Shown piece by piece: positions 1,228 through 22,961 of a stretch of 26,668 nucleotides of DNA. The notes below the pieces were generated by a model. The model had not been told where the DNA came from, did not search any database, and saw only the letters and a program-made list of their open reading frames with translations. A program made the translations under genes and the position numbers. Source of the DNA: an uncultured Candidatus Peribacteria bacterium (GTDB lineage: Bacteria > Patescibacteriota > Gracilibacteria > UBA1369); assembly GCA_964655905.1 (NCBI GenBank), contig CAZZPB010000021.1, positions 1 to 26,668 on the forward strand, in the 5' to 3' direction. Each line of letters opens with the position of its first letter. The first letter of the stretch is position 1.

Positions 1228-2586
1228 ATGGATGTTAAGTCAGTGAAAAAAGATTTTCCAATCTTTGAGCGGCAAATCAACGGGCGGCCGCTGGTATACC
1301 TTGATTCCGCTTCCACAAGCCAAAAACCAAGGGTCGTGCTTGAAGCGCTGCAGCACTACTACACCACGATGAACGCCAACATCCACCGCGGCATCCACAC
1401 CATGGCGGAAGAAGCGACTCTGGCTTATGAAAGCGTACGGGAACACGTAGCGCGCTTCATCAACGCACGCACATCATCTGAAATTATTTTTACCCGCAAT
1501 ACGACTGAAGCCATCAATTTAGTGGCTTACAGCTGGGGAGAACACAACCTGAATGAAGGCGATGAAATTGTGGTGAGCATTTTGGAACACCATTCGAATT
1601 TTGTGCCGTGGCAGCAGCTTTGCAAAAGAAAAAAAGCTGTTTTTCGCGTCATGCCCGTTGATGAAAACGGCTTGATTCAGCCCAATACTCTTGAGAAGTA
1701 CATCACAAAAAAAACAAAACTTGTGGCCATCACGCAGATGTCCAATGTTCTTGGCACAATTATTCCTCTGGAGCCAATAATAAAGGCGGCTCACCAGAAT
1801 GGCGCGATTGTGCTCGTTGACGGCGCCCAGAGCGTGCCGCACATGGGCGTGGATGTGCAAAAACTGGACTGTGATTTTTTGGCTTTCTCAGGCCATAAAA
1901 TGTTTGGCCCGACAGGCGTTGGCGTTCTCTATGGCAAAAAAGCCCTTTTGGAAGCCATGCCGCCATTTTTGTTTGGAGGAGATATGATTAAAGAGGTTCA
2001 TGTAGCCGAAACTACCTGGAATGATATTCCATGGAAATTTGAGGCAGGAACTCCAAATATTGCCGATGTTATCGCTTTTGGAAAGGCTCTGGAATATTTC
2101 AACGACATTGGCATTGAAAATATTTCCCGCCATGAACAGCATTTATTGGCTTATGCTAGGGAAAAACTCGCCATGCTGCCGGGAATAATTTTTTACGGTC
2201 CACAAAATCACGGTATGTCGGGCGGCATTCTTTCATTTAATATTCCAACCGTTCACGCGCATGATGTGGCAGCCATTTTGAACGAGGAAGGCATTGCCAT
2301 TCGCGCCGGCCATCATTGCGCGCAGCCGCTGATGGAAGCGCTTAAGGTAGCGGCCACCGCCCGTTTGAGTTTTTATGTGTATAATGACGAAGCTGACATT
2401 GATCGCACGTTCGAAGCTCTTAAAAAGGTTTATAATATTTTCAAGCCAGAAAAACATGGACATCTACGGCGAAATAATCCTTGTTCCGGGGGCAACCTAC
2501 GGTTTCCCCCGGGCACTCCTCGGCAAGCCTCGGAGCCCCCTTCCCCTTCACATATTTTCAACCGGGAACCCACGAGACCCGCTTGA
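1228..2586 (+). CDS. sufS: Cysteine desulfurase SufS with an ~46-aa element-derived C-terminal extension
   Basis: YLDSAST, DGAQS, FSGHKMFGPTGVG (PLP lysine) and IRAGHHCAQP (catalytic Cys). The SufS-like sequence ends near KKVYNIFK (~2445), and the ORF continues through E2. Confidence 0.95.
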   Translation: MDVKSVKKDFPIFERQINGRPLVYLDSASTSQKPRVVLEALQHYYTTMNANIHRGIHTMAEEATLAYESVREHVARFINARTSSEIIFTRNTTEAINLVAYSWGEHNLNEGDEIVVSILEHHSNFVPWQQLCKRKKAVFRVMPVDENGLIQPNTLEKYITKKTKLVAITQMSNVLGTIIPLEPIIKAAHQNGAIVLVDGAQSVPHMGVDVQKLDCDFLAFSGHKMFGPTGVGVLYGKKALLEAMPPFLFGGDMIKEVHVAETTWNDIPWKFEAGTPNIADVIAFGKALEYFNDIGIENISRHEQHLLAYAREKLAMLPGIIFYGPQNHGMSGGILSFNIPTVHAHDVAAILNEEGIAIRAGHHCAQPLMEALKVAATARLSFYVYNDEADIDRTFEALKKVYNIFKPEKHGHLRRNNPCSGGNLRFPPGTPRQASEPPSPSHIFNREPTRPA

Positions 2587-2650
2587 AAATATGGCATATG
2601 TTCCATTATATTTTCTACTTTCAGCACATGGACATCTACGGCGAAATAAT
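2454..2650 (+). repeat. 25-bp exact direct repeat of the sufU start flanking E2
   Basis: acatggacatctacggcgaaataat at 2454-2478 and 2626-2650. It may extend left to atattttc (2435/2608) with divergence. Confidence 0.9.
2479..2625 (+). mobile_element. Three-hairpin element E2 inserted at the sufS/sufU junction
   Basis: 147 bp between the direct repeats. Hairpins: 2486-2512, ~2511-2538, and 2551-2566/2578-2593. Homologous to E1. Confidence 0.75.
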
Positions 2651-3002
2651 TCTCGACCATTACCGCAACCCGCACCATTACGGACGGCTTGAAAAAGCCA
2701 CTTTATCGGCAAAAGATGTAAATCCGCTCTGCGGGGACAGCATACAGATTGATTTGCTGATTGACGGCAACAACACAATTCAAGACATTGCTTTTACGGC
2801 TCAGGGCTGCGCCATAAGCCAGGCCAGCGCTTCCATGCTTAGTGACATTCTCATCGGAAAATCACTCAAGTTCGCAGCGCAAATATGCAGTGAAGATATT
2901 TACGAAATGGTGGGAGTGCCGCTATCGCCGGCGCGCATTAAATGCGCGCTTTTAGGCTTATCTGCAATAAAAAAAGCAATAACGCTGCAGTATGTTTCTT
3001 GA
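2628..3002 (+). CDS. sufU: SufU/IscU-family Fe-S scaffold or sulfur-transfer protein
   Basis: MDIYGEIILDHYRNP start, NPLCGD, GCAISQASAS, RIKCAL. The listed 2481 start lies inside E2 and is unlikely. Confidence 0.9.
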   Translation: MDIYGEIILDHYRNPHHYGRLEKATLSAKDVNPLCGDSIQIDLLIDGNNTIQDIAFTAQGCAISQASASMLSDILIGKSLKFAAQICSEDIYEMVGVPLSPARIKCALLGLSAIKKAITLQYVS

Positions 3003-3006
3003 ATTT

Positions 3007-3330
3007 ATGCCCCATCAAACCCACAAATTTGACCAGAGCAATCCCTACCATGCCATTTTAAACGAGGTGATTGACCCCGAAGCCGGTGTTGGCATCGTTG
3101 ATATGGGGCTTATTTACGATGTAAGTGAAGAAAATGGCATTGTAAAAGTTACAATGACGCTTACTTCAATGGGCTGCCCTGCCGGACCGCAGCTAACCAC
3201 GGATATTGATGATATCCTGCGCCTGCAGCCCCACGTTAAAGATGTTGAAATTGAAGTCGTGTGGGACCCGCCGTGGACTCCGGATCAAATGAATCCGGAG
3301 ATTAGACAGATGCTGTTTGGCGGATTATAA
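3007..3330 (+). CDS. sufT: DUF59/SufT (PaaD-like) Fe-S maturation protein
   Basis: VIDPEAGVGIVDMGLIYDV, MTLTSMGCPAG, VWDPPWTPD. The start could alternatively be 2992. Confidence 0.88.
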   Translation: MPHQTHKFDQSNPYHAILNEVIDPEAGVGIVDMGLIYDVSEENGIVKVTMTLTSMGCPAGPQLTTDIDDILRLQPHVKDVEIEVVWDPPWTPDQMNPEIRQMLFGGL

Positions 3331-3436
3331 ACCTATAAAAATGCCCGCATATCCGTGCCATATTAAAAAAGCTCCCCACAAAAGATCGCCAGGAAAGCTA
3401 TTTTAGAGGAATACCAGGATGGAATTACCATCAGTA

Positions 3437-3976
3437 TTATAACAAACTATTAATTTTTTCATAAATCAGAAAATTCAGTTCAATGCCGGAGTCTACCGCA
3501 GCTGGACTTTCATTTATAAGTTTAAATTTTTTGGGATCAATCTGCGGAAAAAATGTATCACAGTCAAAAATATGGTTTATTTGAGTAAGATAAATTTTTT
3601 GGCAGAATGGATGATTTATGGCTTGTTTAAAGACTTCTCCGCCGCCAATGACAAAAACATTTTCAATGTCGGCAGTCACAGCAAGATGCCCTAATGCTGC
3701 ATCAAGAGAAAAAAATAAAAGCACATTTTTTGGAAGATCCAGATGTGAATTATGGCTTAAAACAACATTTAACCGGTTTTTGAGCGGACGGCGGGATTCT
3801 GGAATAGACTCAAACGTTTTTCTGCCCATCATGACAGCATTTTTCTTTTGAGGATTATGAACGGTTGTTGTAATACTCGCGAAATACTTGAGATCCGCAG
3901 GCAGATGCCATGGAATAGCATTATTTTTACCGATGCCAAAATGTTTATCAACGGCGACAATAATGGAAAAATTCAT
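3437..3976 (-). CDS. folA: Dihydrofolate reductase
   Basis: [45 protein letters not shown]. Confidence 0.97.
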
Positions 3977-9241: not shown

Positions 9242-10045
9242 ATGTTAACCAAACAGATGCCAATTACACAACCCAAAGTTAAGGGTTTGATGCCGCACCC
9301 CAGACCGGGGCTTCGTTGTGGCGTACCTGCAGGCATCAAAAAAATCATTGCGGTTCATAGCGGCAAGGGTGGCGTAGGAAAAACGTTTGTCGCGATAAAT
9401 TTGGCCGCGCTGTTGGCAAAAAAAGGCTATAAAATCGGCCTGCTCGATGCTGATATTGACTGTCCAAATGTGATGAAAATGTTGCAGTTGAGCGGAAAAT
9501 TGATTGTTGATAAGAATCAGAAAATAACACCGCTGGAAAAATTTGGAATGAAAGTTATTTCCATGGCCCCCATGTTGAACTCTGAAGATGAGGTCTTGAT
9601 GTGGCGCGGGCCGATTGTTTCACGGGTTGTTGAGCAATTTATTTTTGATGTAGCGTGGGACTGCCTGGATTTTTTGATTGTCGATCTGCCTCCTGGCACT
9701 TCCGATATTCCCCTGACGCTTTTTCAAATTGTAAAAGAAGCAAAATTATTGCTGGTTAGCACGCCACAGGAATTGGCCCTTTTAGATGCGAAAAAATCCA
9801 TCAACATGGCCAAAAGGCTGCAAACTGATATTATTGGAATAATGGAAAATATGGCCGGCCCCATTTTTGGGAGAGGCTCAGCAAAAAAACTGGCTTCCAG
9901 TTTGCAAATACCATTTTTAGGGAGTATCTCTCTTGAAAAATCATATACCCTTCCCAATAATTCTGGCATGCCACATGTTTTATCTGATCTAAAACTCCAG
10001 GAAAATTTTAAATGCACATTGAAAATATTAGAAAGTTGTTTGTAG
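9242..10045 (+). CDS. mrp: Mrp/ApbC/NBP35-family P-loop ATPase lacking the C-terminal CXXC
   Basis: SGKGGVGKT, LLDADID, MWRGP, LIVDLPPGTSD, STPQELALLDAKK, ENM. Confidence 0.9.
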   Translation: MLTKQMPITQPKVKGLMPHPRPGLRCGVPAGIKKIIAVHSGKGGVGKTFVAINLAALLAKKGYKIGLLDADIDCPNVMKMLQLSGKLIVDKNQKITPLEKFGMKVISMAPMLNSEDEVLMWRGPIVSRVVEQFIFDVAWDCLDFLIVDLPPGTSDIPLTLFQIVKEAKLLLVSTPQELALLDAKKSINMAKRLQTDIIGIMENMAGPIFGRGSAKKLASSLQIPFLGSISLEKSYTLPNNSGMPHVLSDLKLQENFKCTLKILESCL

Positions 10046-10064
10046 CCTAATTTGGCCGACGAGG

Positions 10065-10112
10065 GGGTCTCGTCCCACGCAGCGGGATCGCCCGCTTAGC
10101 GGGGGGTGATGG
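10065..10112. repeat. Short derivative of the E1/E2 family (E4)
   Basis: gggtctcgtccc…gcccgcttagcgggg..tgat, shared with 21749-21783. Confidence 0.6.
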
Positions 10113-10125
10113 GGTTTTAAGTTAT

Positions 10126-10209
10126 GGGCGGGTGGCGAAACTGGCAGACGCGCTACGTTCAGGTCGTAGTGATCGCAAGATCGTGGAGGTTCAAGTCCTC
10201 TCTCGCCCA
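10126..10209 (+). tRNA. tRNA-Leu (CAG)
   Basis: Acceptor gggcggg/ctcgccc, anticodon arm ctacg-ttCAGgt-cgtag, long variable arm gatc-gcaa-gatc, TTC T-loop. CCA not encoded. Confidence 0.97.
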
Positions 10210-10220
10210 ATGAATTTAAA

Positions 10221-10266
10221 AAATCCCCCGTAGGGAACGCAGATCTGCGTTCCCTACGGGGGATTT
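10221..10266. repeat. Perfect 46-bp GTAG-type palindrome, probable bidirectional terminator
   Basis: aaatcccccgtagggaacgcaga|tctgcgttccctacgggggattt, between the tRNA and a convergent gene. Confidence 0.85.
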
Positions 10267-13265: not shown

Positions 13266-14078
13266 TTAACTCCATTTTTTGTTCTTTAGCGCGTGCTCCG
13301 CCGCTTCCTGTTCAGCTTTTTGCTTGCTTGACCCTTTTCCTTCCCCAATCAATTCTTCACCAATATAGGCGCCCATTGTGAAAATTTTATCGTGGTCGGG
13401 ACCTTTCTGTTCGTGAACCCTGTATTCGGGAGTTATGCCAAGCGTTTCCTGTGATATTTCCTGCAGTTTTGATTTTGCGTCTATATGATGACCTTTTTTC
13501 AGAATTTCATCGAGCCGTTTGATAATAAATTCATCAATAAAAATATGTGCAGTTTTATAGTTTTGGTCAAGAAAAATTGCTCCAATAAGAGCCTCTAAAG
13601 TATTGGCAAGAATATAATTTTTTTTACGGCCACCCGAATGTTCCTCTCCTTTGCTTAAATAAAGGTATGTTCCCAAATCCAAATGATCTGCTATCTCCGC
13701 CAGATGTTTTCCCTTTACCAGAGCCGAACGCCAATTCGTCAAAACACCTTCTTCCTGTTGTGGAAAAGTTTTATAGAGATATTCCGTGACAACAAGCTCC
13801 AAAACAGCATCACCTAAAAATTCCAGCCGTTCGTTTGATGTAGGGGCTTGCGCCTGCCTGCCGGCAGGCAGGTCGCCCTCCAACCCCGCCTTGGCGGGGA
13901 TTGGAGCCTCCCCCTCTCGCACGCGTTGCTCGCTAGCAATTTTATATCCCTCGTGGGCCGATTTGATTTTTTTATGTTCGTTTAGATATGAGGTATGGAC
14001 AAAGGCGGTATCAAGAAGATCAATGTCCTTGAAGGCAATTTTGATTTTTTTTTGGAGTTTATCGTAGCTACTTGGCAT
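13266..14078 (-). CDS. rnc: Ribonuclease III with an in-frame palindrome-derived insertion
   Basis: NERLEFLGDAVL, ANTLEALIGAIFLD, C-terminal dsRBD (DAKSKLQE…GKGSSKQKAEQEAA). Confidence 0.96.
   Translation of the reverse strand: MPSSYDKLQKKIKIAFKDIDLLDTAFVHTSYLNEHKKIKSAHEGYKIASEQRVREGEAPIPAKAGLEGDLPAGRQAQAPTSNERLEFLGDAVLELVVTEYLYKTFPQQEEGVLTNWRSALVKGKHLAEIADHLDLGTYLYLSKGEEHSGGRKKNYILANTLEALIGAIFLDQNYKTAHIFIDEFIIKRLDEILKKGHHIDAKSKLQEISQETLGITPEYRVHEQKGPDHDKIFTMGAYIGEELIGEGKGSSKQKAEQEAAEHALKNKKWS
13840..13939. repeat. Nested REP-like palindromes inside rnc
   Basis: GTAG start at 13840, perfect cctgcctgccggcaggcagg at 13853-13872, ccccgcc-tt-ggcgggg at 13884-13899, ttgct-cgct-agcaa at 13926-13939. 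Confidence 0.85.
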
Positions 14079-14747: not shown

Positions 14748-14862
14748 AGACGAGCCCGAAGGGCTTGTTAAGAAATTACAGCGACCGAAGGGAGCAACCA
14801 CAGACGAGCCCTCGCGAAAGCGGGGGCCTTGTTAAGAAGTCAACACCCCGCCACGGCGGGGT
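14748..14862. repeat. Duplicated hairpin motif plus REP hairpin in the rpmF leader
   Basis: agacgagccc…cttgttaagaa at 14748-14774 and 14802-14838, and accccgcc-ac-ggcggggt at 14845-14862. Confidence 0.8.
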
Positions 14863-14870
14863 AACATTCA

Positions 14871-21860: not shown

Positions 21861-22961
21861 ATGTATTTTAAGCCAAAAATCGGGTTTGTGGTCTTAACAG
21901 GTATGCTCATATTACTGAGCGCGCCAGCAAATGCCAGCGCTGCGCAAGTAGGGACAGGTCGCAACCTGTCCCTACTTGCGCCCACGAATTTCACGCCAAA
22001 AACTTATATATCGCCGAAATATAACGCTTTTGACCATGATTATTATCGTGCGCCAAAATTAGCTGAAGGGGTTGATACGCCGCCCCAGGCTGATTTTTAC
22101 ATTTTCACCAACCAGGCAGGCTTTCAAAATTCCGCTACTGGAACAATTGAAACTGTCTTTACCTTCGATGCCAGCGCTTCAACAGACGCCGAAACGCCTG
22201 CTAGTATGCTAGAAGTTCGCTGGTATTTCGAAAACAGCGCTGCTCCGGATACTTATTTTTCAAGGGCAAAATCCACCCGCCATACCTTCAAAAAAGCAGG
22301 AACATATAACGTAAAACTTGAGGTATTGGATAAGGGCGGCAATATCGCTCAAATAAGTAAAAAAATTATAGTGGTCGAAAATACTTCTCCAATCCCTTTT
22401 TTTAAGGTTGAACCTGTGACCGGCACTGAAAATACTGTTTTTCATTTCGATACTTCCTTATCAAGAGACGATCAATATTTGGCTTCTCATCTGGAATACC
22501 GTTTTGACTGGGATAGCGATGGCAAATGGGACACCGCGTTTCAGAAAAAAACCCACTGGTATCATCGCTTTAACGCAACAGGCAATTATACAGTTACAAT
22601 GGAAGTAAAAGATCCGGACAATCAAAAAGCAGCGCTTAAAAAAGATATTGTTGTTGGCGCAAATACTCCTCCTGTTGCCAGTTTTTCTGTACGCGCACTG
22701 CGTTCATTGGACAAAAAAAATAACAACATTGATTATGAATTTGACGCAGCAGCAAGCTTCGACAGGGAAACGCCTCAAAAAGAATTATTTTATCGTTGGG
22801 ATTTTCATTATAATGGCCCGAATGACATTATTTATGACACAGCGTGGAGCCATTCTCCAAAATCTTTCGCCCGTTTCGAAAAATCTGAAAAATCCGTGGT
22901 AAAGTTGGAGGTTATGGATGCGGATGGAGATATCTCAAGCGCTATATATCGGATCGAGTAA
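21861..22961 (+). CDS. Secreted protein with three PKD domains
   Basis: Signal peptide, then three units of F-x-FDAS-x-S-x-D…(Y)RW(D/Y)…G-x-Y-x-V-x-(L/M)EV-x-D. Confidence 0.88.
   Translation: MYFKPKIGFVVLTGMLILLSAPANASAAQVGTGRNLSLLAPTNFTPKTYISPKYNAFDHDYYRAPKLAEGVDTPPQADFYIFTNQAGFQNSATGTIETVFTFDASASTDAETPASMLEVRWYFENSAAPDTYFSRAKSTRHTFKKAGTYNVKLEVLDKGGNIAQISKKIIVVENTSPIPFFKVEPVTGTENTVFHFDTSLSRDDQYLASHLEYRFDWDSDGKWDTAFQKKTHWYHRFNATGNYTVTMEVKDPDNQKAALKKDIVVGANTPPVASFSVRALRSLDKKNNNIDYEFDAAASFDRETPQKELFYRWDFHYNGPNDIIYDTAWSHSPKSFARFEKSEKSVVKLEVMDADGDISSAIYRIE
21942..21981. repeat. GTAG-type palindrome inside the PKD gene
   Basis: gcgcaagtagggacaggt-cgca-acctgtccctacttgcgc (18-bp arms). Confidence 0.85.

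Follow-up and report, generated by a model that had tools for sequence, protein, structure and literature searches.

In the window analyzed here, a stretch of 26,668 nucleotides (nt) from an uncultured Candidatus Peribacteria bacterium (contig CAZZPB010000021.1), the RNase III gene rnc encodes 39 residues (E43-S81) that are missing in its orthologues. Very probably, this extra segment goes back to one in-frame insertion of a non-coding, GC-rich interspersed DNA element with three hairpins. The element would have landed in the short loop directly before the helix carrying the catalytic signature of RNase III and belongs to a family with a near-invariant core found in very distant phyla. As the family is absent in relatives and present across phyla, we infer that this lineage acquired it horizontally. 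The rnc copy contains two additional nested palindromic modules, and such modules come and go, as is evident from a shorter allele with the same junctions in a related organism. Thus seen, the insert would be selfish or neutral DNA and not a regulatory device specific to rnc.

The gene is a 270-residue open reading frame (ORF) coding for an RNase III of the Peregrinibacteria type, and Pfam recognizes both the RNase III domain (PF14622, 125.7 bits; PF00636, 98.4 bits) and the double-stranded RNA-binding domain (dsRBD; PF00035, 72.8 bits). A search of the small genome returned rnc as its one RNase III gene. An earlier note, written from the letters of the window, had drawn attention to about 40 extra residues and to a distance of 47 residues between the motifs SYLNE and NERLEFLGD. 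This distance is exactly 47 residues and consists of a normal loop of eight (HKKIKSAH) plus the 39 additional ones. The alignment of the window with the DNA of a genome of the same genus (G001) contains a single clean gap of 117 nt, or 39 codons, which therefore defines the insert as 13836-13952 and shifts the limits of 13837-13950 proposed earlier by one and two nucleotides. Outside the insert the DNA identity to G001 is 85.6%, and the two proteins are 93% identical over the matched residues 82-269. In 40 of 40 relatives the protein matches comprise residues 1-42 and 81/82-269 and are located on directly adjacent DNA. The comparison of loop lengths, named at the outset as the way to overturn the idea of an insertion, gave eight residues in each of the 49 aligned homologues and never the length found here. 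Furthermore, the insert was absent from all 32 metagenome relatives, and no insert-bearing allele was found among the best 120 of 8000 Rnc homologues. The insert also differs in composition, with a G+C content of 65% vs. 39% in the remainder of the gene and 41.5% in the genome. Its sense RNA is predicted to fold with -66.5 kcal/mol (z = -3.4), and for its two long palindromes the number of matches expected from shuffled sequences was 0.

A comparison of copies from this and other genomes revealed a common core of ~76-90 nt, which starts with (G/A)TAG-GGGGC-N7-GCCCC (hairpin P1 with its tag) and continues with CTCCA-hairpin-TGGAG (P2), the tract CCTCCCCCTCTCGC and a third hairpin (P3). The consensus derived with the flanks reads (TCTATTA)TAG-GGGGCT(C/T)(G/A)CGTCGCCCC-CTCCA-hairpin-TGGAG-CCTCCCCCTCTCGC-hairpin-GCT(A/G)G. 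In other phyla, many copies have a covarying hairpin of 5-6 bp as P3, and further copies have the variant GCTCGC-NNN-GCTCGC. The model strand of the element corresponds to the plus strand of the window, and rnc is read from the minus strand; on the plus strand the covariance model matches 13840-13939 with 39.5 bits, and the nhmmer E-value of the insert is 2.9e-23. The covariation was determined from an ungapped alignment of fourteen copies of 76 nt, with compensatory changes at the inner P2 pair and at three P3 pairs and a score that was reached by none of 500 shuffles. This alignment replaced one made with MAFFT and RNAalifold, in which the variable stems had been misaligned and covariation did not appear for this reason. 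Rfam returned at most chance-level matches for the rnc copy, a canonical copy and 16 loci with copies. No description of the family was found in Rfam or the searchable literature, where the sequence and peptide strings gave chance matches in unrelated papers.

The architecture of the rnc copy is summarized in Table 1. Its head is identical in two canonical copies of the same genome (contigs C90 and C116), and across phyla (G/A)TAG-GGGGCT(C/T)(G/A)CG is conserved. The three palindromes in an open frame that the earlier note had listed are all present, and the family comparison confirms that they are nested: the 20-nt unit sits in the P1 loop, and CCCCGCC-TT-GGCGGGG takes the place of the usual P2 tip CCGGC-NNN-GCCGG, with the conserved outer arms being kept. 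Both canonical copies and 26 copies of other phyla are without the 20-nt palindrome. In the copy within atpH its position is taken by a related module, CCTGCC..GGCAGG, which occurs again at C110:4447. Hence, the element subfamily probably contained the module already, or else such palindromes have a hot spot in this loop. Hairpins of the type CCCGCC-NN-GGCGGG, as in the P2 tip, are present in 26 copies in this genome. The modules are nested in loops of one pre-existing composite element and do not represent independent insertions into rnc. Of the idea that successive insertions of repetitive extragenic palindromes (REPs) created new protein sequence, the in-frame insertion of palindromic DNA, similar to that in Rickettsia, therefore holds; the succession is better replaced by one composite element that was inserted once and subsequently gained or lost hairpin modules. 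Long variants of 106-107 nt in other phyla (copies in L063, L066, L044, L057 and G042) contain a different P2-tip hairpin or an extra P1-loop hairpin at the same two positions as the rnc copy.

Table 1. Coordinates of rnc, its insert and the parts of the element copy in the window.
Feature	Position	Strand	Basis
rnc, RNase III catalytic domain and dsRBD	13266..14078	-	ORF list, Pfam, AlphaFold
Insert encoding E43-S81 (EGYKIASEQRVREGEAPIPAKAGLEGDLPAGRQAQAPTS), 117 nt, in frame	13836..13952	-	Gap vs. G001, missing in 40 relatives
H42 codon; residue directly preceding the insert, almost invariant among homologues	13953..13955	-	Protein alignment
N82 codon, first residue after the insert, invariant N of NERLEFLGD	13833..13835	-	Protein alignment
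Element head: GTAG tag (13840-13843), P1 5' arm GGGGC, loop start TTGCG	13840..13852	+	Copy alignment
Perfect loopless 20-nt palindrome CCTGCCTGCC/GGCAGGCAGG, extra module inside the P1 loop	13853..13872	.	Inverted-repeat search
P1 3' arm TCGCCC, with two C fewer than in the consensus of the family, TCGCCCCC	13873..13878	+	Alignment of the four genome copies
Hairpin P2: outer arms CTCCAA/ATTGGAG around CCCCGCC-TT-GGCGGGG	13878..13906	+	Inverted repeat; fold -20.3 kcal/mol
Unpaired C-rich tract CCTCCCCCTCTCGC, invariant, most conserved part of the family	13907..13920	+	Identical in C21 (rnc), C90, C116
P3 region ACGCGTTGCTCGCT with TTGCT/AGCAA palindrome (13926-13939)	13921..13939	+	Sequence
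AT-rich tail TTTTATATCCCTC, no counterpart in other copies	13940..13952	+	Copy alignment

Using BLAST and an nhmmer profile on the whole genome we identified four copies of the element, located on C21 (rnc), C90, C116 and C12. The copies on C90 and C116 have the canonical form GTAGGGGCTTGCGTCGCCCCCTCCAACCGGCTGAGCCGGATTGGAGCCTCCCCCTCTCGCTCGC..GCTCGCT, and the rnc copy shares with them the head, the outer P2 arms and the C-rich tract. The copy on C12 lies in the gene for the OSCP/AtpH subunit, begins with ATGGGGGC, carries its CCTGCC..GGCAGG palindrome in the P1 loop and is devoid of P2. Three of the four copies are intragenic, in rnc, in atpH and in a gene for a PduO-type cobalamin adenosyltransferase (Cob_adeno_trans). 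All three are antisense to the model strand of the element and use one common frame that encodes ..SE.xxREGEAPI....LEG..QAPT... The corresponding segments are missing in relatives, and the adenosyltransferase site is empty in G001. The start of the fourth copy coincides with the stop codon of a gene upstream of leuS that codes for a membrane protein. Every allele or copy that was measured (117, 69 and 105 nt) leaves the host frame open. At C90:3438-3680 the adenosyltransferase copy is bracketed by a duplication of 27 nt of host coding sequence, so that AERAIVALQ appears twice; the two repeats differ at four positions, all of them synonymous, and the first 21 nt of the element are duplicated without a difference. 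Synonymous-only changes next to an identical 21-nt head are odd for a simple recent duplication.

The distribution of the family is patchy. Neither the conserved 18-mer (up to two mismatches allowed) nor the covariance model detected a copy in the 40 closest genomes; with the covariance model, one of 41 relatives has the family, which is the genome itself, and so do 3 members of a sample of 401 genomes from the phylum. The exact 20-mer TTGGAGCCTCCCCCTCTCGC, which includes the tract, occurs at 28 loci of the species-representative genome collection, and the hosts belong to Nitrospirae, Syntrophorhabdus, Syntrophus, other Deltaproteobacteria, Patescibacteria, Peribacteria and Saccharibacteria. 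The hosts include a cultured strain, Syntrophorhabdus aromaticivorans UI. In eight genomes bearing the 20-mer, the covariance model counted between two and at least 93 copies each: at least 93 in S. aromaticivorans UI, 52, 48 and 22 in metagenome-assembled genomes (MAGs) of Nitrospirae, Syntrophus and Patescibacteria, respectively, nine in one further genome and two in each of three further ones. Head-to-tail arrays with a period of ~90 nt are found in S. aromaticivorans UI (L060, 3100-3400) and at G041:C1:323124-323377. The tag reads GTAG in three of the four copies here and in one Nitrospirae copy; elsewhere it is mostly ATAG, TTAG, AAAG, ACAG or TATG. The 20-mer was absent from the viral contigs of IMG/VR, and the 76-nt consensus had no plasmid match. 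At one locus of a deltaproteobacterial MAG (L059:335-521) a group I intron (RF00028, 58 bits) lies ~6 kb from an element copy and is probably unrelated.

Independent assemblies gave additional evidence for the insertion and its age. A Logan contig from the probable source run (X1) is identical to 13841-14047 and thus extends across the junction at 13952/13953. The run of an unrelated study (X2) contains an rnc gene of ~88% identity with an empty site, which is exactly 117 nt shorter. A second contig of X2 (160 nt, depth 3.9) joins sequence corresponding to 13807-13852 directly to TCGCCC and then to 13907-14014. It stems from a relative with ~10% divergence, has both host-insert junctions in common with the window and carries an insert of 69 nt (23 codons). 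Both the 20-nt palindrome and P2, the CTCCAA..TTGGAG hairpin in its entirety, are missing from this allele, and the frame is kept; the search for intermediate alleles that had been recommended was therefore successful. As the junctions are the same in the 117-nt and the 69-nt alleles, the insertion is older than the split of the two lineages. The summed contig depth is 2400-3600 over the CCTCCCCCTCTCGC tract vs. ~8 for the flanks, and in the metagenomes X1-X3 the conserved core reaches up to several hundred times the depth of the flanks.

To a certain extent, the element also lies in frame within genes of other organisms. Among 51 distinct sampled copies, 36 are not spanned by long open frames, and the remaining 15 are bordered on either side by 40 or more open codons. 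Eight of these 15 are antisense with the ..EGATxAP frame at the end. In-frame copies among those checked were found in leucyl- and methionyl-tRNA synthetase (LeuRS, MetRS), a NuoN-like antiporter subunit, a pyridoxal phosphate-dependent (PLP) decarboxylase, a family-9 glycosyltransferase, a thiamine pyrophosphate (TPP) enzyme and an AsmA/TamB-like protein. Inside genes the preferred reading is nearly always ..SEREGEAP..LEGATxAP... When 1.84 billion proteins were searched with a profile of this peptide, 247 representative ones matched at E <= 0.001; the majority of these are short and probably spurious calls. The long ones comprise LptF/LptG, TamB, L,D-transpeptidase, Ser/Thr kinase, SpoIID-like and histidine kinase proteins, and in most of them the motif is located within or between recognized domains. 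Depending on the frame, 8 to 25 of 39 copies are free of stop codons in the six frames, with 19 of 39 for the frame in use. All six frames are often open, therefore stop codons alone do not explain the preference for one of them. It suggests either that the encoded peptide is under selection or that insertions are biased in their orientation with respect to transcription.

For RNase III itself, an AlphaFold model based on a 50-sequence alignment, as had been proposed for the loop, shows an insert of low confidence on an otherwise normal fold. The mean predicted local distance difference test (pLDDT) score is 83, the RNase III fold is kept at ~90, most 10-residue blocks outside the insert have values of ~80-97, and the blocks over residues 41-80 have means of 38-61 with a weak helix at 45-54. 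Normalized by target length, the template modeling (TM) score against the E. coli and Aquifex enzymes (7R97, 2NUG) is 0.79. NERLEFLGD (residues 82-90) is invariant in the 50 sequences. Three of the four catalytic acids known from E. coli (E41, D45, D114 and E117) are present as E86, D90 and E162, and the equivalent of D114 is N159. This asparagine (~13602-13604, minus strand; ANTLEAL) occurs in all 50 aligned homologues of the clade, and the ANxxEAL form also aligns with Drosha RIIIDa; judged from the alignment, N159 is a trait of the Candidate Phyla Radiation (CPR) clade and unrelated to the insert. The insert itself would probably form an acidic, Pro/Ala/Gly-rich and disordered surface excursion that is translated. 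We assume that the enzyme tolerates it, which fits the AlphaFold model, the low dN/dS ratio (nonsynonymous to synonymous substitution rates) and the two in-frame alleles.

Several points weigh against an element that was moved into a working gene. The insert splits the conserved H-NERLEFLGD junction beside the catalytic residues, so that activity may be altered or lost. As it lies one residue before the catalytic helix, the fold and the dN/dS ratio fall short of a proof of activity; the ratio of rnc vs. G001 is 0.05 at a dS of 0.90 and spans the whole divergence from G001, not the time since insertion alone. A search for RNA runs holding the rnc gene found none, and the short allele is known from a single 160-nt Logan contig with a depth of 3.9. 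The rnc copy could not be linked to a transposase, to terminal inverted repeats or to a duplicated target, and mobility is therefore deduced from the patterns of presence and absence only.

A further possibility, though a very unlikely one, is that the enzyme now employs the insert as a functional loop, with its substrate choice, partners or regulation being altered. Its position adjoining the catalytic signature, the conservation of the frame in two lineages ~10% apart and the strong purifying selection on the gene overall would be in line with such a role. A co-opted loop is difficult to reconcile with block means of pLDDT of 38-61, with 16 of 39 codons being dispensable in the short allele, with the same peptide in dozens of unrelated proteins and with the lack of the insert in every other homologue. 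Slightly harder to defend is the assumption that the insertion inactivated rnc and that we observe a young pseudogene whose frame has not yet decayed. H42 is indeed parted from N82 one residue before the catalytic helix, and RNase III is dispensable in some bacteria. However, the gene contains no stop codon and no frameshift, two in-frame alleles of different length exist in diverged lineages, dN/dS is 0.05, and rnc is the sole gene of its kind in a small genome.

The earlier note had also suggested that the hairpins provide an intragenic cleavage site by which RNase III autoregulates its own mRNA. In E. coli, the 5' leader of the rnc mRNA contains a hairpin that RNase III cleaves, and this precedent together with the strongly structured sense RNA of the insert (-66.5 kcal/mol, z = -3.4) speaks for the idea. 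Nevertheless, it gained no support, and we regard it as very unlikely. As the element is also found in atpH, the adenosyltransferase gene, LeuRS, MetRS and many more genes, its presence in rnc needs no special explanation, and the unrelated host genes occur both here and in other phyla. Furthermore, a related rnc gene keeps the insertion without both strong hairpins. The predicted helices, one of ~13 bp with a bulge and others of 8-10 bp in a three-way junction, nowhere form a continuous helix of ~20 bp (about two turns). Unlike the E. coli leader, the site is intragenic, and the search for RNA data found none.

That the segment is removed before the mature protein is formed, as an intron, an intein or by translational bypass, is extremely improbable: beyond the hint of a discrete, structured, GC-rich block nothing direct speaks for it, Rfam has no match to an intron or other family, 39 residues are far below the size of an intein, the kept host frame in all measured alleles and copies (117, 69 and 105 nt) would be needless, and one frame is strongly preferred in genes although all six are often open. 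An assembly or binning artefact that joined a repeat to rnc is scarcely credible either, as the fragmentation into 165 contigs and the several-hundred-fold summed contig depth of the element core in the sample are opposed by the identical independent Logan assembly across 13952/13953, by the contig of an unrelated study that spans both junctions in a diverged relative and by an insert exactly in frame.

With the insert being an element copy, the question arises how it moves. At rnc the search for duplicated flanks gave nothing beyond the level of shuffled controls; a possible KIxS echo of the host loop in the tail is AT-rich and lacks significance. Other copies do show long target duplications: C90 has one of 27 nt, L065 one of 59 nt, L069 one of 50 nt and L056 a diverged one of ~83 nt. 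Y1_Tnp matches are present in seven of nine element-bearing genomes, and the flanks (~3 kb per locus) of six Y1 genes from such genomes contained no element copy. The two Y1 genes of this genome that resemble REP-associated tyrosine transposases (RAYTs; C48:2185-2709 and C8:10211-10768) have another REP, GTAGGGAACG..CGTTCCCTAC, in their flanks or within them. In the ORF on C8 a REP is translated in frame (..PVGNADLRSLQ..), and the paralogue on C48 is without it; the same GTAG REPs and variants are located at 10230-10257 and 21948-21975 of the window.

Regarding the family as a whole, a broader reading, which we consider about equally balanced between right and wrong, combines several parts. 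An apparently undescribed family of ~76-90-nt three-hairpin elements would spread horizontally across phyla, become fixed in genes nearly always in one orientation and frame, serve as a scaffold and insert by a non-canonical route. In this way the module ..SEREGEAP-x-LP-LEGATxAPIIE.. would be added to dozens of protein families, including aminoacyl-tRNA synthetases and RNase III, hairpin loops would gain and lose palindromes with the frame kept, and the insertion would sometimes duplicate 27-83 bp of target without the need for an element-encoded enzyme.

Other repeats were observed in this genome. A second family of the form GAC-hairpin-GTTAAGAAATTAnnGC-hairpin-GCAACCAC has variable GC-rich hairpins, and the genome contains GTTAAGAART ~55 times. 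In the window, the spacer that separates the DUF177-like gene from rpmF is filled by two copies in tandem (14748-14870, both strands), which end at the start codon of rpmF. On C8 (~9847-10160) the last ~74 nt of an HU-like gene including the stop codon occur twice, around an insert of ~165 nt. This insert represents a further element that is GC-rich and structured (..GAAGGGGAAAGGGGC-hairpin-GTACCTGGGGGAAACCGTAGGTTGCCCCCAG) and was seen on C110 and C158 as well.

The odd RNase III described here would thus be an ordinary enzyme plus translated selfish DNA, which guards against assigning a regulatory function to such segments. The family offers a tractable case to study how non-autonomous hairpin repeats cross phyla, how proteins absorb inserts of 20-40 residues near active sites and how palindromes nest and vanish without breaking the frame. 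S. aromaticivorans UI, being cultured and carrying at least 93 copies, could serve as an experimental host.

With respect to known systems, the GC clusters of yeast mitochondria are short, mobile and palindromic modules, GC-rich within a genome of higher AT content, which can nest and occur in frame in var1. The resemblance is a general one alone, no sequence comparison having been made; these clusters are organellar, and the proposed mobility mechanisms differ. Among bacterial MITEs (transposable elements of the miniature inverted-repeat type), in-frame fusions are known for ERIC, Correia/NEMIS and the Coxiella QMITE (review PMC10969869). The element is likewise non-autonomous, of high copy number, structured, patchy between close relatives and sometimes translated. 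A classification as MITE was rejected, as the alignments show no terminal inverted repeats, neither a short target duplication of fixed length nor a parent insertion sequence was detected, and the junctions in rnc are exact. Insertion with long target duplication has been described for kilobase-sized restriction-modification units (Furuta, Abe and Kobayashi 2010, PMC2853133); in a similar manner some copies of the family are bracketed by imperfect, variable repeats of 27-83 nt with no mobility gene nearby, whereas the rnc copy is without a duplication.

The hairpins of REPs tagged with GTAG or CGTC are often grouped, and intragenic copies encode 20-30 residues in several species (Di Nocera et al. 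2013, PMC3733652). Three of the four copies in our genome start with GTAG-GGGGC-N7-GCCCC, a GC-rich hairpin with an unpaired tag, and the genome encodes two RAYT-like proteins. In contrast to REPs with their palindrome of 20-40 bp, the element combines three different hairpins in a fixed arrangement, with long unpaired tracts that are invariant; only few copies have the tag GTAG, and the examined Y1 genes are not flanked by the element. The closest parallel in the mode of working is provided by the Rickettsia palindromic elements (RPEs), small palindromic repeats of ~100-150 bp that are described within Rickettsia, in frame in unrelated housekeeping genes, with a conserved peptide for each family and host proteins that are apparently functional (Ogata et al. 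2000, 2002, as summarized in PMC10969869). The element is also palindromic, present in multiple copies and inserted in frame in unrelated genes with a conserved peptide (..REGEAP..LEGATxAP..), but it has a near-identical core of 76-90 nt with three hairpins and hosts among Nitrospirae, Deltaproteobacteria/Syntrophia and CPR. The likeness is one in the mode of working, and no membership is claimed. The family is set apart from RPEs and REPs by its three-hairpin architecture, its range across phyla, its one preferred frame and its occasional long target duplications.

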